Below, piece after piece: positions 9,257 to 57,000 of a stretch of 64,000 nucleotides of DNA (position 1 is the first letter of the stretch; each line of letters starts with the position of its first letter). The position numbers were made by a program, and so were the translations under genes. Source of the DNA: Octopus vulgaris (Eukaryota). The notes beneath the pieces are model-generated. The model searched no databases. It was given only the letters and a program-made list of their open reading frames with translations, and was not told the DNA's origin. The stretch is from the NCBI GenBank assembly GCA_951406725.2, contig OX597817.1, positions 2,914,001 through 2,978,000 on the forward strand. The letters are read 5' to 3'.

Positions 9257-9667
9257 GGATCTTTTCGGTTTGAACGGTAGTTTTTAACATAATTTCTAGG
9301 TAACTGAAAATTTTTTAACTTCGTATACTGGTAGAATGTGTTTATAAAACATCTTTTTCTCTTGGCTCTATTGAGAAAATTCTATAGTTTGTAAGATATT
9401 TGTTGTTCTTTTTCTTCAGTTTCTACAATTTCAACCAATCACTGACGTCCACTGAGGTAAACAACATTCTGTGCCGTATGAATATGTCCCTCGTTTAAGA
9501 AACAGATTGGGTTTATTTACATTTGTGAAGAAAAAAAGATACCCTTCCCCCAACCCTAACCCTAAAATAGATTGAAATGCAATAGATCGATACTAGGGTC
9601 ATAATTATGGGTGACAATTTCATATGACACGGCTAGAAAAAAACTGCCGTTCAAACCGAAAAGATCC
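9257..9667. mobile_element. MITE, Merlin-like, copy 1
   Basis: About 29-bp TIRs GGATCTTTTCGGTTTGAACGG(C/T)AGTTTTT; 8-bp flanks CACGTAAG/CATGTAAC; closely similar to 53611-54022. Confidence 0.85.
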
Positions 9668-9957
9668 CATGTAACTTTTACTAAATGTGTTAAGTGCCCT
9701 TTTCTTTCGTTTGTCCACTCACGTATGTGTGTGCGTGTGTGTGTGTGCGTGTGTGTGTGTGTGTGTGTATACACATATACACACATATAAATAGTGTTAT
9801 ACACTGCTTCAAACATTCTTGAGGAAGCATAGATATCACATTGTCTCGACGGCCCAGTTCTGATCGATCTTATTAAACACGTATACTCATCTGTCACCTT
9901 GGCTTTTCGAATAAATAACATTAACATCAAACCACAGCTGGCTTTCACAGCTATCAC

Positions 9958-19829: not shown

Positions 19830-20485
19830 AGAATCGTTCGCGGGATATTTCGGACAAAATGCTTAGCGGCATTTCTTTCGGAACTTTACCTTCTTAGTAC
19901 AGATTCTGCCGAGATCGACTTAAGCTTTTAATCCTTTCGGGTTCAATAAACTATGTAACAGTCAAGTATTGGGATCATTCTGCCCCTTCCCCTCAAAATT
20001 GTTGACTTTTTACCGAAATTAGAAAGAATTAATATCAATTATAATGTTTGCGTTTTGAGTTACAATTCTGCTGAGGTTTACTTTGCTTTTCATCTTTTCT
20101 TGGGGGTCAATGAAATAAGTTCCCCTTACGCATTGGGTCGATGTAATTGACTAGCCCACACCCTCCCCAAATCCAGGCCTTGTACCTGTAACAGAAATTA
20201 TTATTAATAATAAATTTCTAAAGCAACGATCTTTTCTCAATCGTTAGTGCGGTCAGCTCTTTACGTACAGAGTTCAGATTCTGCTGAGGTCGACTTTGCC
20301 TTTCATCCTATAATTGTTGAAGTAAAATCCTTTCTACCATTGCCATAAAGCCTGAAATATTGTGAGAGGGGACTAGTCGACTACATAAACTCCATTGTTT
20401 AGCTGCTACTTATTTTATTGACACCGAAAAGATGAAAGGCAAAATCGACCTCGGCGGAATTTAAACTCAGAACGTGAAGACGGTA
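19830..20485. mobile_element. Cluster of degenerate family A SINE bodies
   Basis: Three plus-strand GAGGTCGACTTTGCCTTTCATCC-type units and one minus-strand unit. Confidence 0.7.
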
Positions 20486-27603: not shown

Positions 27604-28231
27604 TTCTCGCACGCACACACACATTCACAAACACCCATGCACAGAAATATGTGTATGCGTTTGCGTGCGTAGATAAACGCGCGTTTATTTAAATGTTGAC
27701 TACGAGCAGATCATCTGTTTCGGGCTGTGCAATAGATTCTCATTCGGTCCTAATATTGAATATACCTCTATATGGCCTAAAATTTAGAATGCTATGTCCC
27801 TTGTTAAAGGTAACGATACAAAGGAGGAGAGAATAATTCAATGATCATGCAAGTCTGTGTTTCAGGTAGACCTTTATGAATGTTAAATAATTAACTGTTT
27901 ATCTAATAGGGAAGCTCTTGTCAGTTGTTGACGTTTATTTCTAAAACAAACTGCAAAGATATCAACCGTAACCAAATGAATCACACCCTGTTGCACACTA
28001 CGGTTTTTTTTTCTTGTTTTTTTTCACATCCCCACGTATAGTTCAGTATTTAATAATACTCTTACACATCCACTTAAATTGGATTTGGAGTTCACTAAAT
28101 TATGGCTCTTGCAACAGTTTTAATATTCGTTGATATTTTCGTCCAGTAATTCGGTGGAGGTGTCTAAGAACATAACTCGTCTCGTTAAATGCACAAATAT
28201 GTTCGAAACCAGCCTCAGTTGATTTTAAATA

Positions 28232-28650
28232 AGGCGGCGAGCTGGCAGAATCGTTAGCACGCCGAGCGAAATGCTTAGCGATATTTCGCCTGCCGCTACG
28301 TTCTGAGTTCAAATTCCGCCGAGGTAGACTTTGCCTTTAATCCTTTCGGGGTCGATTAAATAAGTACCAGTTACGCGCTGGAGGCGATATAATCCACTTA
28401 ATCCGTTTGTCTGTCCTTGTTTGTTCCTTCAGTGGGCAGTAAAGAAATAAGAATCGTTAGCACCCCGGACAAAACATGCTTAGAGGCAGTGCATCCGTCT
28501 TTACGTTCTGAGTTCAAATTCCACGGAGGTCAACTTTGTCTTTCATCCTTTCGGAGTCGATGAAATAAGTACCAGTTGAGTACTGGGGTCGATGAAGTCG
28601 ACTTACTCCCTCCCCAACATTTCAGGTCTCGTGCTTGCAGCAGGAAGGAT
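28232..28650 (+). mobile_element. Two tandem family A SINEs (head GGCGGCGAGCTGGCAGAATCGTTAG)
   Basis: Shared body GTTCTGAGTTCAAATTCCGCCGAGGTCGACTTTGCCTTTCATCCTTTCGGGGTCGAT..AATAAGTACCAG; second copy starts at about 28451. Confidence 0.85.
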
Positions 28651-32712: not shown

Positions 32713-33931
32713 CTACATGAACCAGTCAGTACACTTAATTCCATCACAACATTCCTCACACACTTCCATTCTTTCTACGTTCCAATTTCTTTATTACATT
32801 ATCAACCTATTTCTCTCCTCTCTCTGTCTTTCTCTATCTGTCTGTCTCTCTGTCTCTGTCTGTCTGTCTCCCTCTCTCTCCCCCCTCTCTCTCTAAGACA
32901 CACACACAATCACCCGTCTGAATTGATGACACTTTTCCTCGTTGTTTCACCTTACATTCGTCTCTTCGTGAAATTTCGTTTGTTCTCTTCTCTATACATA
33001 CCTATGGAATCTATTAGTAAGCTTGTCTTATCAGTTTTCCACTCTATTTGCCTTTCAGTATCTCCTCTTTCTTTCTCTCTTTCGTTCTTTCCCTCTCTCT
33101 CTTCCTCACTACCTAGTTCTATTTAACTCTTACCTTCTCCCTCTTTCTCACTCACTCTCTCTCCCTCTCTCTCTCTCTGTCTCCCTTCCTGTATTTTTCT
33201 ATCTCGGTCTGTTTATCTCCGAAGATTACAAGAGTGCGAAAGCAAATCAGTTCTGTTGACTTCAGGTAAACACAGGTGAATAATAAAAGCAAAAGAAAAA
33301 AAAAAGATGGTAACACAGAGAAAGCGGTGAGAGGAGGGAATCTTTCTTGTTCGAAATCTGCTGCTAAGAAATTCTTTTCAGCTTCACCTTCAGTTTGTAA
33401 ATTACTGAGGGGACGCCGTGACTTTACTCGCTAAACTTGGGTTTTATTACTACATGACTTTCAAATAACTGTGTCCGAAATACACTTGAAACACGAAGGA
33501 AATAATAATACATAAAGAATATGAATGATGGAGAAATAATACCTAAATATTCCTTGTCAGTTGACTGCTAAAATAATAAACATAGGTATTTTCTCACAAT
33601 TTAGCATTGAGATTCTGATGCACGTGACATCATGGCATTAGACTTTCTGCACACATTCGTTTACTCACTAATCCGCTCACAGGCACATAACTTTCTGTCT
33701 TTTCTGCTATTTACTGCTGGTTTCTACGCAAATAAAACCGTCAAAAACTGTCAGGTGACAACAACCGCAAAGGTAAATGAAACCGTATATTGAAACTCAT
33801 TGCTACGTACGAAACAAATAAAGAAGCTAGGAAATAGTCACTCGACCTGCTATAAATAGCTGCGAGGTTTCATTATCATCCCAAAGTATCTCATATAAGA
33901 ATAGCAAGTATTAGGCATACACTATGCCAAA

Positions 33932-34312
33932 GGCGGCAGGCTGGCAGAATCGTTAGCACGCCGGGCGAAATGCTTAGCGGTATTTCGCCTGCTGTTACGT
34001 TCTGAGTTTAAATTCCGCCGAGGTCGACTTTGCCTTTCAACCTTGCGGGGTCGATTAAATAAGTACCAGTTACGCACTGGGGTCGATATAATCGACTTAA
34101 TCCGTTCGTCTGTCCTTGTTTGTTCTCTGTGTTTAGCCCCTTGTGGGTAGTAAAGAGTTCTGAGTTCAAATTCCGCCGAGGTCAACTTTGCCTTTCATTC
34201 TTTCATTCTTTCGGGGTCAATTAAATAAGTACCAGTTACGCACTGGAGTCGATATAATCGACTTAATCCGTTTGTCTGTCGTTGTTTGTCCTCTCTGTGG
34301 GTAGTAAATTAA
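33932..34312 (+). mobile_element. Dimeric family A SINE with TSD
   Basis: Full copy plus 5'-truncated second unit from 34157. Flanked by TAGGCATACACTATGCCAA (33912-33930) and TAGGCATATTCTATGCCAA (34313-34331). Confidence 0.85.
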
Positions 34313-38195: not shown

Positions 38196-38294
38196 GTGAT
38201 ACACACACGCACACACACACATACACACACACACACACACACACGCACACACACACACATATAATAGAATAATTACTATGAAGCATTGTGTAGT

Positions 38295-38592
38295 ATATAT
38301 TGTATAAAGGATCGTGGGTAAGACCAAAACAATGCGAAATAAATAAAAGGTAAATCATAACAAAACAAATATGTGAATTAATGTAGACTTACCTCGTATT
38401 CAATATTTCGGGGTTATGACCCCATTTTCAATATGTGGATCGACAACATTCGTCAATTCCTTGAAAATGGGGTCATAACCCTGAAATATTGAATACAAGG
38501 TAAGTCTACAGTAATTCACATATTTGTTTTGTTGTGTTTTACCTTGTATTTACTTCGCACTGTCTTGGCCTTATCCACGATCATTTATTCAA

Positions 38593-38597
<5 letters not shown>
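38295..38597. repeat. Fold-back inverted repeat (probable inverted Penelope-like terminal repeats)
   Basis: Arms 38295-38431 and 38461-38597, 29-nt spacer, embedded among TA/CA repeats. Confidence 0.85.
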
Positions 38598-38646
<49 letters not shown>

Positions 38647-38647
38647 T

Positions 38648-38860
38648 TAATCCAAACATGCAAACACCAAGAGAAAACACAACAACGCGAGGACGTGGAA
38701 CAAATATAGTATTATTGGACGCTCAGGAAGGAAGGGAAGAAGGAGGGCTTTACGTTTCGAGCGGAGCTCTTCGTCAGAAACATAGGAAAAGGAAAGATCC
38801 AGAGAAGGGAAGACGGAGGAAAAAAAATCGCCAACGGTACACACGCGGTCACATTTTGAA
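38648..38860 (-). mobile_element. Penelope-like terminal repeat remnant
   Basis: Next to (TA)n; minus strand has CTGACGAAGAGCTCCGCTCGAAACG followed by AATAATA, typical of PLE pseudo-LTRs. Confidence 0.6.
38747..38781 (-). ncRNA. Minimal type I hammerhead ribozyme candidate (canonical core)
   Basis: GUUU-CUGACGA-A-GAGC(UCC)GCUC-GAAA-CG-UA-AAGC. Confidence 0.55.
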
Positions 38861-42791: not shown

Positions 42792-44006
42792 CTTCCACGC
42801 ATATATATCTGACGAAAATAAGAGCTAAAGAGAATAAAGAATGATAAGCAGTAAATAAGAGGAAAGAAACCATAAAATGTCTGATCTAAAACTGCTGTTT
42901 GCTTATCCCAAGAGACATCGTCTAAGAATGTGATAGAAGGGAATATGCCATAAAAATATATAAAGAAAGACCTATTAAAGATGAAGATAATCATGAGTAA
43001 CAAGAGACTGGTTTACGGAACAACTAGTTGTGCGGAGGAAGATAAGTTAACAATGCAGAAATTGCTTTCAGGACACAAGAATGCACGTGTGTGCTATATA
43101 TATATAGATATAAAACTTACACGAACACAAGCACACACATATGCGCACCCACACATATTTGCATGCACGCACGCATGTATACATATTGCAAGCTCAGGAT
43201 TGGTTAACGCGCCCTACATTGGCATCCTTTCTTTTCTCCACTTTTCACAACAACCATCTTTCTCTCTTCCCCCGTCTCTCTCTTCCTTTCTTTCAGTAAC
43301 ATGCATTTGACACCTCCTCTCATACCAACCTCCTCCTCCTCATTCCCTCTTTTCTGTCAGAATTTACAGATCATTTCCACACCTCACAATCTCCATCCTC
43401 ATATCCTCGTTTACTTCCTGTCTCCACATGTTAACCACTTCTCTTAATTTGAGTCTTCCACCTGCTAATAAATTGCATTACTACTCACTCCATCAAACAC
43501 TTTGACCAAGGTTTACTAAGCATTATCTCAAACACAAATTCAAATCAAAACTAACCGTATCACTTTGATCACGAAGTGTCAAAATTTTACCCATATCTGA
43601 CAGCAACTTCGTATAGGAAAAAGTAGCGCAAACATCATTATAGCAAACATTACTAAACACCTCGCAGGATTGATCGATACAAGGCCTTTAATTATACCTG
43701 AAGGCTTCACTGATGACAGAAATATGGAGAGCACTCTGCCTAACAATGATAAATGCTTTCACTGATTTTCCTTTTAAGACTTAATCTAAGGACAAATACC
43801 TGATCCAGTCAAGTCCCTTTTTCTAATTATTCCTCAAGCATTTGTAAAATATGAACCTTCAGTTCTGTTTGTTAGAATTTATATTTATTGGTGTCAGAAT
43901 TTCCAAACGAGTAGGAGTAGGGAACAAATGCATGTATGTATATATGTATGTATGTACGTATGTATGTATGTACGTACTTATGTACGTATGAAGTCTAATT
44001 CTGTTT

Positions 44007-44087
<81 letters not shown>

Positions 44088-44277
44088 CATACACACACAC
44101 ACACATATATATATTACGGAGATGTACTTGCATAGCAAGTCACCTGATCTGAGATCGTGTGCTGGAACGAAAACATTTGCAGCATGGAAGATGTTTATAG
44201 CCATTTAAGAAACACAAACAAACACAAACAAACAAAAAACAAAATACGGCTAGATTCACTTGAACATTTAAATCTAA

Positions 44278-44328
44278 TTTGTCAAAATATTTTCGTCGCT
44301 TTGAGACCGCTACCTGTTCACTGACAAA
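44278..44328 (-). ncRNA. Minimal hammerhead candidate, G3-C8 core variant
   Basis: UUUGUCA-GUGAACA-G-GUAGC(9 nt)GCGAC-GAAA-AUAU-UU-UGACAAA. Confidence 0.5.
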
Positions 44329-44376
44329 ATTCCGTGCTGCAGCAGATAATGTTAAGTAAACCTTGTAGCACGGAAT

Positions 44377-44427
44377 TTTGTTAGTGAACAGGTCGCGGTC
44401 TCAAAGCGACGAAAATATTTTGGCAAA
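44377..44427 (+). ncRNA. Minimal hammerhead candidate, G3-C8 core variant (mirror copy)
   Basis: UUUGUUA-GUGAACA-G-GUCGC(9 nt)GCGAC-GAAA-AUAU-UU-UGGCAAA. Confidence 0.5.
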
Positions 44428-45048
44428 TTTTAATTTTTTTGTTGAAGTGAATCTAACGGTTAGATATCAGCTTCAAATGAATTATAACTTTGAGGTTGTT
44501 CCAAGAAGCCTCATCGGCCTAAATGAAATAAACTATACCGGAAAAGGGATGCGCCGCTTTATTGGTTGCTTGCTGGTATCTCACCACACTACAGAAGCTA
44601 TCAATCGACATCATTGACTAACTCCTTTACCAGAATGTGTGACAAGCTGTACACAAGCTGGAAATCAATTATATTTTGTCGCATGAGATTGCAGTAAGGA
44701 ACTAAAACGACGGTTCACATTCAATTGAGATATCCCTTTAGCTCAGTCCACTGACGTTAATACTGCTCCTGAGAAACATATCAACATCACTATTATTTCA
44801 ATAATCACTTGTAGGCAATGCAGAAAACAACGCTACGCTGGCTTAAACGATTCTGATTTCTTATCTAACTGGGCAACTCAGACTTGCTCTTTAGTAGCCT
44901 TCTCTTCATTTCGTTTTCCTTTCTTTCGACTTGCGATCAGAACTCTATACTTTTAGAGCAAGGGATTAAAGAATTAAGGACTAGATGGAAGTACAAGTAT
45001 ATCTAAGAGGAGATGAGCTCATCACACACACATGCACACACACACATG

Positions 45049-46315: not shown

Positions 46316-46798
46316 TTCACAGAACGAAATTCGCTTTCTCTTTCGTTGCCCCAATGTCTATCGAATAAGAAACTGTAATAAATTGTGGTCTACAAATCTC
46401 TGATTTTGTGTTATTAAAAATAAGATATGATTTGTCTTATCAGGCCATCAAATGAAACACAGGCAAACATGGTTCCCAATAGAAATTTGATTAGGCTGTC
46501 GGGCCCTTTTTAGGGAGCTGGTTCAGTAGATAATCACGAGCTCCTGTTTGGCTCTTCAGGCCTCGAACTCCGACCTGAACACTTCTTCTGATAAGCACTG
46601 TTGGTAAAACACATTAGATAAGAAAAAAAAGTATCTAATTAAGTATATTTAATAAGCATTTCAGTAAATTACAATATATCCCATCTTAAACTCTATAGAT
46701 TTATCTTGTAGAAGTGCCAAGGAAAGACATAATATACCACTAAATTCGTAGAAATTTATGCCCAAATGTATGCGCACCCATGTTAGCAGCAGCTTACT

Positions 46799-47044
46799 CA
46801 AAAACTTGTATATACGCATGTAAGAAAATATGCGAAGGTAGGTTCCTTTTGACTTAGCAGGAGGCTTATGCATAAACAAGGTGAAGCAGGTATTTGAGAT
46901 TTCGCATAAGCATATATAGTGACATTTTGCATCATTTTGGAGAGGATGACGCACAATAATGACCAGATGTGATTTGAGCACAGAAATTATATTGGAAGGA
47001 GTTACGTTGTTTTCAAGTACCTGTATGCTTCCTGCACCTCTCAG

Positions 47045-47090
<46 letters not shown>

Positions 47091-49838
47091 TGCGCAGGAG
47101 TGGCTGAGAAACTTGCTTCCCAATCACATGGTTCCTGATTCAGTGCCACTGCGTGCCACCTTGGGCAAGTGCCTTCTGCTATAGCCTCGGGAGTGGATTT
47201 CGTATACGGAAACTGAAAGAAGCACGTTGCATATATATGTATATATTTGTGTGTGTGTTTGTGTTTTCCCGCCACCATCACTTGACAGCGAGTGTTGGTG
47301 TGTTAACGTCCCCGCAACGTTGCGGGTCGGCAAAAGACACCTATAGAATAAGTACTAGGCTTACAAAGAATAAGTCCTGGGGTCGATTTATTTGACTAAA
47401 TGTGGTGCTCCAGCATGGCCACAGTCAAACGACTAAAAAATTTTTTTTTAATAATAGTGTGTGTGTGCATTTTATGCACATTGCTAGCTTTTTCTTGTGA
47501 ATCGAGGTAGTTATGTCTCTACCTTTATATCTCTCTCACTATGTAACACTACCCTCATTTACGTATATATTCCGTTCTTTAGGCTTTAGCTTTACTCATA
47601 CTTTATACTTAATACTTGTTTCTACCTTTTATACATCTTAAATTTTTTACACCCTTCTTTCTTTACTCATCTTCCACCATACAATATAGAAAACATCCAA
47701 ACACTGCGCCTTTTTAGGAGTAGCCATACTTTGTTGATTAGTGTTACTATATAAATTATATATTTTAATCATGTGGAGGCCGGTGGCTTAGTGGCTAGTG
47801 TATCGAACTGAGGATCATAAGATTGCGTTTTTGATGACGGAGCGGACACTTCATTTCATGCTGCTCAAGTCTACTCGGCTGACATAATTGAGTGATCCTG
47901 CAACGAAGACGGGGATTTGGCAGCACCGTTGGTATGCTGGACATAGGCATTTCGTCCATTTTTACGTTATTAATTCTAATTCCATCGATGTCGACTGTCC
48001 CTTATATAACTTCATGAACACCTATATACTATATATACACACTCATTAATTTCTCCAATCCATTGTGACCTACTTTCCATTTTTCAGATGTAGTATTGGT
48101 ATAAAATCATGTCGAAATAATTAAAGAGTACATGTGGATAATCAGATTAAACCCACGGTCGTCACAGGTATGCATCTGTCCCTACAACTCCCAATTATGA
48201 TCATTGAGGAAGGATTTCCAATATGGTTAACCATATCTTAAAAACGCTATCATTTAATTACAACTTGAAAGGCTTTCATTTAATTACAATTTGAAAGCTA
48301 TTATAAATCAATCATTAGTCTTTTCTACATCTTAGTAACATATTTATTCCTAATATTGATATCTGATTCTAGATATCCAAACATAGGTTACTTGATAATA
48401 CATAATCTGGAAATCTTAAGTGTACATATCAAATATGTGTCTAAATTCTTAGTCACTCCTCATCACGATTTCTTGTCTACTAAGGCGTCAAATCTTTACA
48501 GATATCTCTACTAACCACAACGTGCATTATTAGCAAATTCAGAGAAATATATATTATCTGACAGTTTTCTTACAGTAAATTAAGAAGAGTTATATAAACT
48601 TATCAACTGTAGCGATTTTCGTTTTCTTCATATGTTTCGGAGAAATAACGTTATTTATCACATGACTAATTTGAAATATGCTGACCGTATTTTCTTCTTG
48701 AACTGTTGCTGTTCTTCTTGTAACTGCTGTTGATCCTTCTCCATTCTTCTCATGAACGTGTCAAAAACTTGTATGTATGCAATGTAAGTGTGTACGTAAA
48801 TATGCGAAGGTAGGTTCCTTTTGACTTTGCAGGAGGCTTATGCATAAAAAAAGAAGAAGCAGGTATTTGAGATTTCGCATAAGCATATATAGTGACATTT
48901 TGCATCATTTTGGAGAAGATGAGGCACAATAATGACCAGATGTGATTTGAGCATAAAAATATGTTGGAAGGAGTTAAGTTACTTGAAAATATCTGTATGC
49001 CTCTGCACCTCTCTGGTGACCTAAGTGTGTATATTTTATTCACGTTGTTTGCTTTTTCTGGTGAATCGAGGTTATTTTTATACCTTTATATCTCTCTCAC
49101 TGTTACTAAGTAACACTACACTCATTTACGTATATATTCCGTTCTTTAGGCTTTAGCTTTCTTCATACATTACACTTAATACTTGTTTCTAAGTTTTACA
49201 CATCTTAAGTCTTTTTCACCCTTCTTTTCTTACTTATCTTCTACCATATAATATATCAAACATCCAAACACTGCACCTTTTTAAGAGTAGCCATATTTTG
49301 TTGGTTAGTGTTACTATATAAATAATATATTACGCATTTTAGTCACGTGGAGGCACGTGGCTTTGCGGCTTAGCGGTTAGTGCATAGCACAGAGGATCAT
49401 AAGATTGCGTTTTTGATGACGAAGCGAGCACTTCATGTCATGCTTCTCAAACCTATTCGGCTGACAAAAGTGAGTTTTCCTGCGACGAAGGCGACGAGTT
49501 GACAGCATCGTTGGTATGCTCGGCGAAATGCTTATACGCATTTCGTCCATTTTTTTTACGTTATTAGTTCCAATTCCACCGACGTCGACTTGCCCTAACC
49601 TCACTTCAGGGTTGTAAAATAAGTAGCGGTTGAACACTTGAGTCAATGTAACCATCTTAATTCCTGCCTGAAATGTGAAACCAATATATTATACATTCTA
49701 AGTTCTATACTTCCAGAAGAGATCCCACGTGATCTATCAGTAGCGCTACACTGAATTCATGAACACCTGTATACTATATATACACACTCATTAATTTCTT
49801 CAATCCTTTGTGACCTACTTTCCATTTTTCAGATGTAG
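46799..49838 (+). repeat. Local direct duplication (units about 46799-48091 and 48762-49838)
   Basis: Collinear matches from CAAAAACTTGTAT to GACCTACTTTCCATTTTTCAGATGTAG, including a shared family D SINE. Confidence 0.85.
47091..47436 (+). mobile_element. SINE family B
   Basis: Homologous to 26365-26795 throughout. Present in only one unit of the local duplication. Confidence 0.85.
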
Positions 49839-50092
49839 GAGTGGCTGTGTGGTGAGTAGCTTGCTTACGAACCACATGGTTCTGGGTTCAGTCCCACTGC
49901 GTGACACCTTGGGCAAGTGTCTTCTACTATAGCCTCGGGCCGACCAATGCCTTGTGAGTGGATTTGGTAGACGGAAACTGAAAGAAGCCCGTCGTATATA
50001 TATATATATTATATATATGTATGTATATATATATATATATATGTGTGTGTGTATGTGTGTATATGTTTGTCCCTCCAAGATCGCTTGACAAC
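49837..50092 (+). mobile_element. SINE family B, 3'-truncated
   Basis: GGAGTGGCTGTGTGG...GGAAACTGAAAGAAGCCCGTCG plus internal microsatellite. Confidence 0.85.
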
Positions 50093-50773: not shown

Positions 50774-50965
50774 AGGCGGCGTTGCCGCGCCGGACCAAAT
50801 GCTTGGCGGCATTTCTTCCAACATTACGTTTTGAGATCAAATGCTGCCGAGGTCGACTTTGGTTTTTATTCTTTCGAGATTGATAAAATATGTACCAGTT
50901 GAGCACTGGGGTCGCTGTAATCGACTGAAACACCTTCCCCGTAATGGTTGGCTTTGTGCCAAAAC
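50774..50965 (+). mobile_element. Degenerate family A SINE
   Basis: AAATGCTTGGCGGCATTTC...GCCGAGGTCGACTTTG...GTACCAGTTGAGCACTGGGGTCG. Confidence 0.7.
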
Positions 50966-51146: not shown

Positions 51147-51378
51147 TATTTCTTTACTACCCACAAGGGGCTAAACACAGAGGGGACAAACAAGGACAGA
51201 CAAACGGATTAAGTCGATTACACCTATCCCAGTGCGTAACTGGTACTTGATTTATCGACCCCGAAAGGATGAAAGGCAAAGTCGACCTCGGCGGAATTTG
51301 AACTCAGAACGCAGCGGCGGATGAAATACTGCAAAGCATTTCGCCCGGTGTGCTAACGTTTCTGCCAGCTCGCCGCCT
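51147..51378 (-). mobile_element. Family A SINE, young, 24-bp TSD
   Basis: TTTCCAAAATTATACGGATTTATA at 51123-51146 and 51379-51402. Confidence 0.9.
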
Positions 51379-51919
51379 TTTCCAAAATTATACGGATTTA
51401 TACTAAAGACAAAAATCAATATGATGTTACGTTTTGTCGTCGTCGCCGTATGATAAGAGGTACAATCGTGACGAATAGGTTTCAATTCTCAGTTAATACA
51501 AATTCATTTCTGTAAATAAGGCTATTAAGACTAGGTTGAATGCTACAGTATTTCATTTTAGCCTTTTTTCAGAATATGAACTTGAGAAAATGAAAGTAGC
51601 ATTACGTTTTACATGAAAGTATGGCTCATAGAATACACAAAGATGTTCTTTGTATCATGTCTACGAAACTAGCTTTGGTGAGTCAACGAAGATTGTAAAA
51701 CATAGGATCATTACTCAGGTTTCGATTTTCACTTGAAATTTATAATTTTTAGTCTAAAAGAAAAGTATATTCTGGAAAAATGTTAACAAAATTTGAAGAG
51801 ATGAAATTTCTCATGTGTGACATATTGAATTACAGAAAGCTAGATTAGAATACCATGATATATGTGCATAAGTAAGCAATAAATATATAATCATATTGAT
51901 GTTATATTTTAATCTCACT

Positions 51920-53610: not shown

Positions 53611-54022
53611 GGATCTTTTCGGTTTGAACGGCAGTTTTTAAAAATAATTTCCACGTAACTAAACACTTTTAAACTTCGTATACTGGTAGAATGTGTTTAT
53701 AAAACATCTTTTTCTCTTGGCTTTATTGAGAAAATTCTATAGTTTGTAAGATATTTGTTGTGTTTTTTTCTTCAGTTTCTGCAATTTCAACCAATCAATG
53801 ACGTATATTGAAGTGAAAACATTCTGTGCCGTATGAATATGTCCCTCGTTTAAGAAACAGATTGGGTTTATTTACATTTGTGAAGAAAAAAAGATACCCT
53901 TCCTCCACCCCTAAGCCTAAAACAGATTGAAATGCAATAGATCGATACTAGGGTCATAATTATGGGTGACAATTTCATATGACACCGCTAGAAAAAAACT
54001 GCCGTTCAAACCGAAAAGATCC
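53611..54022. mobile_element. MITE, Merlin-like, copy 2 (in the SLCO intron)
   Basis: Same TIRs; perfect 8-bp TSD CTATTTTT at 53603-53610 and 54023-54030. Confidence 0.9.
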
Positions 54023-57000
54023 CTATTTTTTCATTTTCTGAAAAAGCAACGTTTTGGACTTAGACACTTTTGCATAATAGCAATATTTCTCCCCACCTTC
54101 AGTATCTTCTTTCAGTATAAAGAACATCTGAGGAACCAAATTTAATATTCAGTTGATAAAGTTCTTAAAATTAGATAGATTTGTGTATCGCGTGGATTTA
54201 CGGTACAGAAGTCTTACTTTACGAATTAATATTAACTTTTTTCTTTTCGACAGTTGTAATTTTTATATTTTAATATAGTTTACACACTTCACTAAATTTT
54301 GTTGAACATTTCAAAATAATTTTATATTTTAATTGTCATTTCACCGAAAACTTTGATAAGAATCCAATTTTTATTTAATTTCTTTCTTTCTTTAATCTTT
54401 GACACGGGTACAAAAGAATATTCGGAAAGGTTATCTTTTCTTTCTTTTCACATTTCACTGCACTTTATTTAAACTGTCCGTTGTTCTTTCCACCTCTACG
54501 TTTTACTTCTTTCACGAAATATTATTTTTCATAAATATTATTATAATGATGTGGCGGCTCGAAGAATTTTTATTGCCATATATTGTATGCAAATGAGTGC
54601 ATTAGCCGAGCATGATTAAAATCGGATGAAAAACAAACGACTGTTGCCAACAGTGATTTCTAATTTATGTTGACATTTACCTTTTTCATATGACTATCCC
54701 CTCATCCTCCACCAGGATTATAATTTTTTTTCTCAATTCACTTTCGATTCATAACACTTCTAAAATCGATCCCCAGTAATATTGTTTTGTTTTTTTTTGC
54801 AAATTAGATTTTTTTGCTGATTGTTTTTATTCGAACCAGATATATGTTTGACATATTTGGAAAGAGGAGAAAAAAAAGACAGCTGTAAAAATATTATTAG
54901 ATTAAACCATAAATTGACGCAGACGACGTTCTTTTGTCTTCTTCGTTGTAGACATCTGTTACATGTAATAAATTAAATTAAAATTCTTTTGATTAGTTGA
55001 CCCTATAGATTCTAATTGACTTTTAAATAATACTTACAATATCACCTCCCCCTCTACTCTTAATTGCGATTCTCAGCAACCCAGATAATGTGCTTTTATC
55101 ATTGTATAGAGCATCGTTTGAAATTTTAATTGCTTCGCGATCACACTCCTGATAAGACTTTCATTAGATGGCATTGCGTTGCTTAATAATGACGATTATT
55201 ATATAATAGAGTGCAACATATGTGTGTCTTATGACTCAGCAATTCACAAAATCGATCGTATTTACATAGTCTAAAGGCATTCAGCCAAACTAATCTATTA
55301 TCCAGTAAATACTTAATATTCGGACATCTCTGTTATAATGTAAGCGTGGGAGATGGATAGGCGGAATCGTTAGATCGTCGGAAAGAAATTCCTAGCGGAA
55401 TCTTTTCGACTGCCAACGTTCAAATCACGGTTAGGTTTAACTTTTCCTTTCTTTCCTCCGGGTTCGATGAAATAAACTACTAACCCTTCCTCTATAAAAT
55501 GAACGTAGTGCGACGCTTTTACTGATAAACGTAAGTACAGTCACTGACACACAGACACGTATAGGAATTATGTGTACATAGAGATGTCTGACTACTACGG
55601 TTACATTTAGAGTTCCACGTAGATTTTCATAATCCAATTTGCTTCCTGTATAGTTGTTAAGTAACTTCTACACTGAGTAGTATTGCTAGTTATGAACTAC
55701 AGAGGAACTGTTGGAAAAATAAGGATACGCACCAGTTTATAAAGCTTTTACGCGCGTTTCACTATTATGATCATCTGGAGCCCTGCGATTGATGATTCAA
55801 ATGCATATAGATGCTCAACCCCGACGAATCCTCAAGGAAAACTTCATTTTAGCAAGTTACAGACAACTATGTCCAAAGTTGAGTGGCTGGCGAGGCATTT
55901 TGTCATCATTTTAGGATGGAAATAGAAAGCAAAAGGATATCTATGCAAGCGTAACGAGATTCCGCGGAGTTCCCAACTTATAAATTCCAGATATAAGTTA
56001 TTGGCAAACAGTTGAAGGTCCTTGCCCAAGGTGTTGTGCAGTGGAATTGAACCCAGAATCATATTGTTGCAGAGTAACAATATGATCACGCAGACATAAC
56101 TCTATAGTTGGTTATCGTAAATGTTTTGAACAATTTTGGAAGAGTGTAACTGTTGATGCGTCCTCCACCTCATCGCAGTGTGGAATAATTGAAGCAAACT
56201 TTTGTGATTCGAAGCAGAAATCAGTTCCTGGAAGTTCTGAAGGCACGTGATATCCCATTTCTCCACCTTACAAAACTTATTACAAATCGAAATTTGAGTC
56301 CACCTTCGATATTTCTTGTCCATTGAAAACCATTGAAATCGATAATGATCCTCTGCTCGTGAACCTTTTGATGAATGTTCTTCTTGAAGAGCAGCACGGT
56401 TAGAAGCGCAGCCTTCCATATTAGGGAAATAATAACTATTTTCTTTTTCACCCCTTTCGCAAATATACTGCTGATAAGAACTAGCACGATACTGAAGGTC
56501 AGTGAATAAATGTTCACTACATAAATCTTCGGAATATTGTGCACCATGAAAATTCTCTATCTACACACACACACACACACACATATACATATATATATAT
56601 ACACACAAACACATTAAAATAGATTTATATGCATTTATATTCAGTTGCCTATATTCGGTAGTAGGTACGTATCTGAACATGCAGGTGCCCCATAAAATCG
56701 ACGCACACATCAGTGTGCACATGCATGCTAGCATCCAGGCATATATTTGTACAAATCAGCATGGAAGGTAGTTGCTCACAAATACAGATGCACACGCCGC
56801 TCTCGCAAGCATGTATAGGCACAAACATGAATTTGCACATTACTGCGCGATTATACATGGCCGCATGTTCCCAAATTGATCTAGCGTGTGAATGGTCTTC
56901 AATCTGAACGGATAAATCAAGTCAGTTAATACAGAAGGTAGTAACCTTACTAAAGAATTACACATTCGATATATGTATAATGTGCGTGCGTATTTCTGTG

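Follow-up and report, generated by a model that had tools for sequence, protein, structure and literature searches.

Can the hammerhead ribozyme occur in nature with its 3-8 base pair reversed, and if so, what kind of element carries it? The question is raised by a palindrome in a 64,000-nucleotide stretch of Octopus vulgaris DNA (hereafter the window), where two divergently oriented motifs of the minimal hammerhead layout both contain the core GUGAACA. The window is microsatellite-rich, with a GC content of about 36%.

Structure of the locus

Two copies of a short, high-copy element stand head to head at this locus. The left copy (44114..44346, minus strand) is near-complete and measures about 230 nt in the hammerhead sense, as judged from the sequence, from contig depth over 44120-44341 and from loose contig ends that cluster at 44341. 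Its 3' boundary was taken from the sequence; the contig alignment described below omitted 43900-44119, and the 3' ends of the family are masked there. This end adjoins a (TA)n/(CA)n microsatellite (44038..44113) that is likely the insertion target, and about 12 nt from it is a 6-bp hairpin (44126..44140) that also forms in the element's predicted fold. The right copy (44364..44461, plus strand), delimited by alignment of the two arms, is inverted and 3'-shortened, with the last ~135 nt missing. It is followed by single-copy DNA (depth about 80 by 44512 in sequencing run X1), and there is no (TA)n at its 3' end.

An inverted-repeat search places a 22-nt junction spacer (44342..44363) between the copies. 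The core arms, 44276-44341 and 44364-44429, are identical at 62 of 66 positions and the complete inverted repeat (44251-44455) has 82.7% identity over 208 columns. The spacer stretch 44344-44365 has an inverted match (20 of 22 positions) to 43507-43528, 840 bp upstream, and is possibly templated filler; as a background level, a match of this quality within 2 kb is found for 14 of 400 random 22-mers. An ATG at 44204 on the minus strand lies in an A-rich context after a U-rich tract, about 90 nt from the 3' end of the element. It could be the start of a parent open reading frame (ORF), as in Penelope-like elements (PLEs) whose pLTR continues into the ORF.

A minimal hammerhead with a reversed 3-8 pair

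Each copy contains a minimal type I hammerhead. Evidence for the plus-strand motif (44377..44427, predicted cut 44420/44421) comes from the sequence, the descriptor given below and folding, and for the minus-strand motif (44278..44328, predicted cut 44285/44284) from the sequence, arm alignment and folding. In the plus copy, stem I (UUUGUUA/UGGCAAA) has two U.G wobbles (44382.44422 and 44381.44423), the core GUGAACA at 44384-44390 is followed by an extra G at 44391, and stem II (GUCGC/GCGAC) is a perfect 5-bp helix with a 9-nt loop. After these come GAAA (44411-44414), AUAU (44415-44418), U16.1 (44419) and U17 (44420). The minus copy, read from 44328 to 44278, has a perfect 7-bp stem I (UUUGUCA/UGACAAA) and shares the core, the extra G, GAAA, AUAU and UUU with the plus copy. 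The first-pass annotation had listed the perfect stem I of the minus copy, the perfect stem II of the plus copy, the G-U wobbles and the shared core, and we confirmed these base by base. Absent from it is a single A.G mismatch in stem II of the minus copy (GUAGC/GCGAC).

The C3 and G8 of the canonical box CUGANGA are not matched in either copy, both of which read GUGAACA, while U4, G5, A6 and A9 are canonical. A Watson-Crick 3-8 pair is possible in the motif as G3-C8, with G3 at 44384 and C8 at 44389 on the plus strand and at 44321 and 44316 on the minus strand. The GAAA box, A15.1-U16.1 and H17 are all present in the plus copy and at the mirror positions of the minus copy. The extra nucleotide 9/10.1 is G44391, and G10.1-C11.1 is G44392-C44410. 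Positions 15.2-16.2 and loop 3 are palindromic (AUAU), inside the 6-nt palindrome AAUAUU (44414..44419, plus strand, A15.1 to U16.1), which sequence and folding mark as the predicted inter-copy stem III. Stem I (7 bp), stem II (5 bp) and loop 2 (9 nt) are within the published limits of 3-7 bp, 3-7 bp and 3-10 nt. The two copies are not independent evidence because they result from one insertion of one family. The wobbles in stem I are weak evidence because transitions in stems often yield wobbles, and the change at 44382 is absent from about 98% of the family depth.

To judge how easily such a motif arises, we ran a descriptor that requires stems of 4 bp or more and accepts any Watson-Crick pairing between positions 3 and 8 on the 64-kb window and on 60 Markov resamples of it. 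The window gave two matches: the plus copy at 44377-44427 and, at 38777, a motif with the canonical C3-G8 pair. The minus copy was missed because of its stem II mismatch. The 60 resamples together gave one match, of the C3 type, and none of the G3 type, and an analytic estimate of the chance expectation for the plus copy is about 1e-6 per window. A chance resemblance to the hammerhead would fit the silence of the Rfam hammerhead models: at the gathering level nothing in the window matched Rfam, and with E up to 10 the 27 matches over 44050-44520 included no hammerhead family, the top ones being generic microRNA hairpins. It would also fit six occurrences of the exact core plus stem II pattern in prokaryote genomes. 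Those six are themselves chance matches in GC-rich DNA, however, and have neither the palindrome nor stem I. Pattern scans returned no further family copies from metagenome contigs (two patterns) or from viral contigs. The hammerhead motif is not a chance product, and we give that explanation a negligible probability. The published hammerhead descriptors that we examined require CUGANGA (PMC4209133, PMC3088659, PMC8557442), and because this box is hard-coded in the published search pattern, the G3-C8 motif would be missed.

The repeat family in public sequencing runs

The stretch or part of it is contained in 20 of the 24 public runs listed, and four have at least half of its words. Contigs of four of the 24 (X1, X2, X6 and X15, with three species labels) were aligned to 43900-44900, giving 11,141, 7,312, 6,081 and 945 aligned contigs, respectively. 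X15 is guessed to be an RNA run; it is made of contigs and has no bearing on transcription. In X1 the summed depth is 2.15 million over the hammerhead compared with 80 on the single-copy flank, a ratio of about 27,000 that is rough and is not a copy number. We read the element as present in many thousands of copies.

Variants were tabulated at a threshold of 3% from short contigs and summed depth, with variants near contig ends uncounted. At 44311, T>G is found in 85-94% of the depth, and at 44382, T>C in 97.5-99.5%, in all four runs; in each case the majority letter is that of the other arm, and both stems are therefore perfect in the family majority. By the first-pass annotation, the proposal turned on whether the consensus core reads GUGAACA, and it does: no variant of at least 3% is present in the core (44315-44321 and 44384-44390) or in GAAA (44291-44294 and 44411-44414) in any of the four runs, among the 40 of 44 variants listed. 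Among those listed in the hammerhead, the non-CpG variants affect loop 2 at two positions (up to 30%) and stem I at one, where the U.G pair is kept (3-9% on the left arm); the remainder are at CpG sites. The annotation had also called the reversed pair a natural example, which is borne out by the family majority in all four runs. G3-C8 is a trait of the family, not a quirk of one locus.

The repeat family looks young. The variant table shows the state of the family and not present selection, because most non-CpG positions in stems and flanks are equally unlisted. We considered constraint on G12, a CpG position absent from the variants listed while its CpG partner C11.1 varies in 3-11% of the depth. 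We gave this no weight because other CpG partners are likewise not among the 40 of 44 variants listed.

The 5' ends of the family are within about 25 nt of stem I, with loose ends at 44328-44329, 44341, 44367 and 44376-44377. In X6, the loose-end consensus of 12 contigs at 44344 shows the element restarting in the opposite direction across a TGCA palindrome and reading GTGAACA. Head-to-head pairs therefore recur in the family. A single X6 contig extends over 44251-44428 (27 differences, 7 gaps). The right flank of the locus is covered in X1 only. According to the loose-end consensus, the family 5' end (44342-44347) could pair with loop 2 (44397-44405) over 5-6 bp, and this pairing is lost in both copies at the locus.

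Predicted folding

Folding calculations suggest that a single copy would form the hammerhead poorly. Closure of stem III within one copy costs 5.4 kcal/mol, and for the plus copy the dimer hammerhead has a predicted energy of -20.0 kcal/mol compared with -4.3 kcal/mol per monomer hammerhead. The dimer fold consists of swapped stems I and a 6-bp AAUAUU helix, and the cofold minimum is 5.2 kcal/mol lower still. In the predicted fold, G3 is paired with U17 (probabilities of 0.52 and 0.59), and this G3.U17 pair is a possible inactive trap.

A transcript that reads through the locus folds differently, at -132 kcal/mol for the plus strand and -121 kcal/mol for the minus strand, with hammerhead stem probabilities of 0.0. 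The first-pass annotation had expected a read-through transcript to form a long dsRNA hairpin masking the ribozyme, and the predicted fold agrees. Could the locus then matter as a dsRNA hairpin, a substrate for editing or small RNAs in a host transcript, and not as a ribozyme? These energies are what the idea would require, but any inverted pair yields such a hairpin, no host exon was identified nearby in the window frames, and conservation of the locus is unsupported with its right flank seen in one run. We consider this very improbable. The locus as such is probably an inert insertion, and the interest sits in the repeat family.

Affiliation of the element

No reverse transcriptase or GIY-YIG domain was found in any of 131 window frames (at least 75 aa, complexity-filtered), and the four frames with weak, sub-cut-off Pfam matches had none related to mobile elements. 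The PLE link is for this reason based on anatomy. Among the Naiad PLE consensus sequences (Craig et al. 2021 supplement), five short element words had no match and a sixth had one, in unrelated sequence; this comparison used exact words, and line breaks could hide single matches.

The arrangement of the copies is consistent with PLEs. PLEs have been reported to insert with an inverted copy attached at the 5' end (PMC8557442), an arrangement present both at the locus and in the 12 X6 contigs, and (TA)n insertion targets have been described for PLEs of the Neptune and Naiad clades (PMC8557442). Solo copies are the rule for PLE minimal hammerhead motifs, and opposite-strand pairs of them have been noted in Schistosoma (PMC4209133). 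The divergent palindrome, which had been put forward as a special feature, is thus an ordinary PLE insertion pattern that recurs in the family and also in another, U3-A8 family of the window. A target-primed copy should end in (TA)n, and the right copy does not, which counts against the PLE reading.

The ends of the element allow another origin, in which a non-autonomous DNA element of Helitron-like or MITE-like type captured a PLE hammerhead fragment and the ribozyme is a passenger. Helitrons have a 3' CTRR after a subterminal hairpin and a 5' TC, and insert between A and T. At the locus there is a defined 5' end, A|TC, and the hairpin about 12 nt from the 3' end is followed by T. The two ends of the family, from the loose-end consensus, share an imperfect 8-nt inverted repeat (7/8). 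Despite the hairpin at 44126-44140, however, the 3' end reads GTAA and not CTRR. The loose-end consensus at 44341 is TC in X1 and X15 and TG in X2 and X6, and more 5' ends occur at 44328-44329. The recurrent head-to-head pairs and the (TA)n target fit PLEs, and a captured fragment seems improbable to us. A retrozyme array at the locus was rejected: the window has two copies, and these are inverted rather than head-to-tail.

Other repeats occur in the window. At 38262-38600, 6 kb from the G3-C8 locus, is a second divergent inverted pair of the same layout that is minimal hammerhead-like with U3-A8, its cores starting at 38431 (minus) and 38461 (plus). Each of its motifs is followed by a GTAAGT splice-donor-like word and ends at microsatellites, and stem I is imperfect in both. 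At 38747-38781 (minus) is a canonical C3-G8 minimal hammerhead, with its core at 38777 and the 3' end of the repeat adjoining (TA)n. Three different 3-8 pairs (G3-C8, U3-A8 and C3-G8) are thus found within 6 kb. Two MITE-like copies of 412 bp, at 9257-9668 and 53611-54023, share 94% identity and have inverted repeats of about 30 bp at their termini. A SINE-like repeat occurs at 28231-28609, 33929-34299, 51151-51388, 50780-50929 and 20351-20483, in places as partial units in tandem; there is no tRNA in the window and therefore no tRNA-SINE head, and this repeat, like the repeats of the window in general, may resemble octopus repeats. A local diverged duplication links 46798-48099 and 48761-49844 in three blocks with 81-94% identity.

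Discussion

Together, these data make it likely that the swapped core is a ribozyme variant of natural origin, derived from a Penelope-like element. We favor, with somewhat better than even confidence, a reading in which the locus holds head-to-head copies of a very abundant repeat of about 230 nt, whose majority has the minimal hammerhead layout with G3-C8, which is likely a PLE pLTR and which is likely weakly self-cutting, as a dimer or with the protein of the element. A Watson-Crick contact between nucleotides 3 and 8 positions the 2'-OH of nucleotide 8. The reversed pair would retain this contact, so that the active site would still form, at a lower rate. Stem III would be too short in a single copy, and two same-sense copies would instead pair through AAUAUU and swap stem I. 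From the folding and by analogy with known systems, we infer that the family ribozyme is slow and would act, as a dimer or aided by protein, where copies stand in same-sense tandem.

In the mechanism that we propose, the reverse transcriptase of the element would have copied uncut RNA into a (TA)n target, and it would be for this reason that the copies retain the complete ribozyme and about 25 nt upstream. Two cDNAs would then have been joined at their 5'-sense ends, probably aided by the TGCA palindrome, to give the divergent pair. Read-through RNA from the locus would form a dsRNA hairpin that hides the ribozyme, and because the copies are on opposite strands, no cis dimer would come from the locus.

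The main alternative is that the family carries a dead relic: a PLE-derived hammerhead whose source copy gained G3-C8 no longer cuts, and the family spread regardless, which it could do because insertion does not need cutting. In the anole element, uncut RNA is the insertion substrate, catalytic mutants were without effect on insertion in vitro, and RNA-seq gave no reads ending at the cut site (PMC11167929). G8C alone causes a 10^5-fold loss of activity, and C3G gives only partial recovery (PMC8495972). That our element copies include the uncut motif and that the G3.U17 pair is predicted would also fit a relic. Against it, both changes restore one pair, the other core positions are canonical and the majority stems are perfect, and among the variants listed non-CpG variation is confined to loop 2 and a wobble-compatible site. 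We consider a relic unlikely.

A change from C3-G8 to G3-C8 takes two transversions that restore one pair, which seems hard to explain without selection on that pair. A successful family in which this pair is reversed and the rest is kept argues for selection on the active-site pair. In its strongest form, which we hold tentatively and well short of even confidence, the G3-C8 hammerhead would be active and selection would maintain it in a repeat that ranks among the most abundant of the animal lineage, U17 would have been chosen since C17 would trap G3, and swapped cores would make up a large class that CUGANGA descriptors leave hidden and that may extend to some PLE clades said to lack hammerheads. 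A G3-C8 variant was less active with C17 than with G17, according to data not shown in that report (PMC3884650); nucleotide 17 of the present family is U. If the pair is active and selected, the two transversions would prove, from a natural case, that the geometry of cleavage is important for the propagation of PLEs in vivo.

The case matters because PLE hammerheads cut poorly (in vitro for the minimal ones; PMC4209133) and in one reconstituted system insertion did not need cutting (PMC11167929). To this it adds a family of very high copy number whose core is clean in all other respects, which is a ready natural test set. Since the published descriptors that we examined require CUGANGA, counts of animal ribozymes may miss families of many thousand copies. 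We give the palindrome little weight, as a common PLE insertion product that would silence the ribozyme in read-through RNA.

Comparison with known systems

Animal non-LTR retrozymes, proposed to derive from PLE pLTRs, share with our element a non-coding unit of about 200-400 nt and a type I hammerhead (PMC7229834; bioRxiv 10.64898/2026.07.22.740005). By contrast, retrozymes are head-to-tail tandem arrays with mostly canonical hammerheads, whereas the two copies at the locus stand head to head and carry a minimal motif with a swapped core.

The likeness to the minimal hammerheads of PLEs (Cervera and de la Pena 2014, PMC4209133) is closer. Shared features are the type I layout, the extra 9/10.1 nucleotide, G10.1-C11.1, the palindromic 15.2-16.2, the stem and loop sizes, the occurrence mostly as dispersed single copies and the presence of opposite-strand pairs. 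The core differs: the 56 motifs of their Fig. S3 comprise 53 with C3-G8, two with U3-A8, one with U3.G8 and none with G3-C8. The extra nucleotide is G here, whereas the published PLE consensus has H, with G in one of the 56 examples.

Natural U3-A8 covariants, described by Perreault et al. (2011, PMC3088659) and in the Cercyon PLEs of Schistosoma (PMC4209133), are likewise a compensated 3-8 change, and U3-A8 is the natural covariant named in the available part of Perreault et al. They differ from ours in that U3-A8 takes two transitions with a possible U.G intermediate, whereas G3-C8 takes two transversions and puts the purine at position 3 and the pyrimidine at position 8. In the literature that we searched, mostly outside subscription papers, we found engineered cases and no report of a natural G3-C8 hammerhead. 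The rarity suggested by the first-pass annotation holds only to that extent. The nearest of the engineered cases is the C3G/G8C construct of the anole Poseidon PLE hammerhead (Frangieh et al. 2024, PMC11167929), an identical swap in the same ribozyme class, which partly rescues cleavage and requires the PLE protein. That swap is a laboratory construct; here, by contrast, it is the natural majority of a high-copy family.
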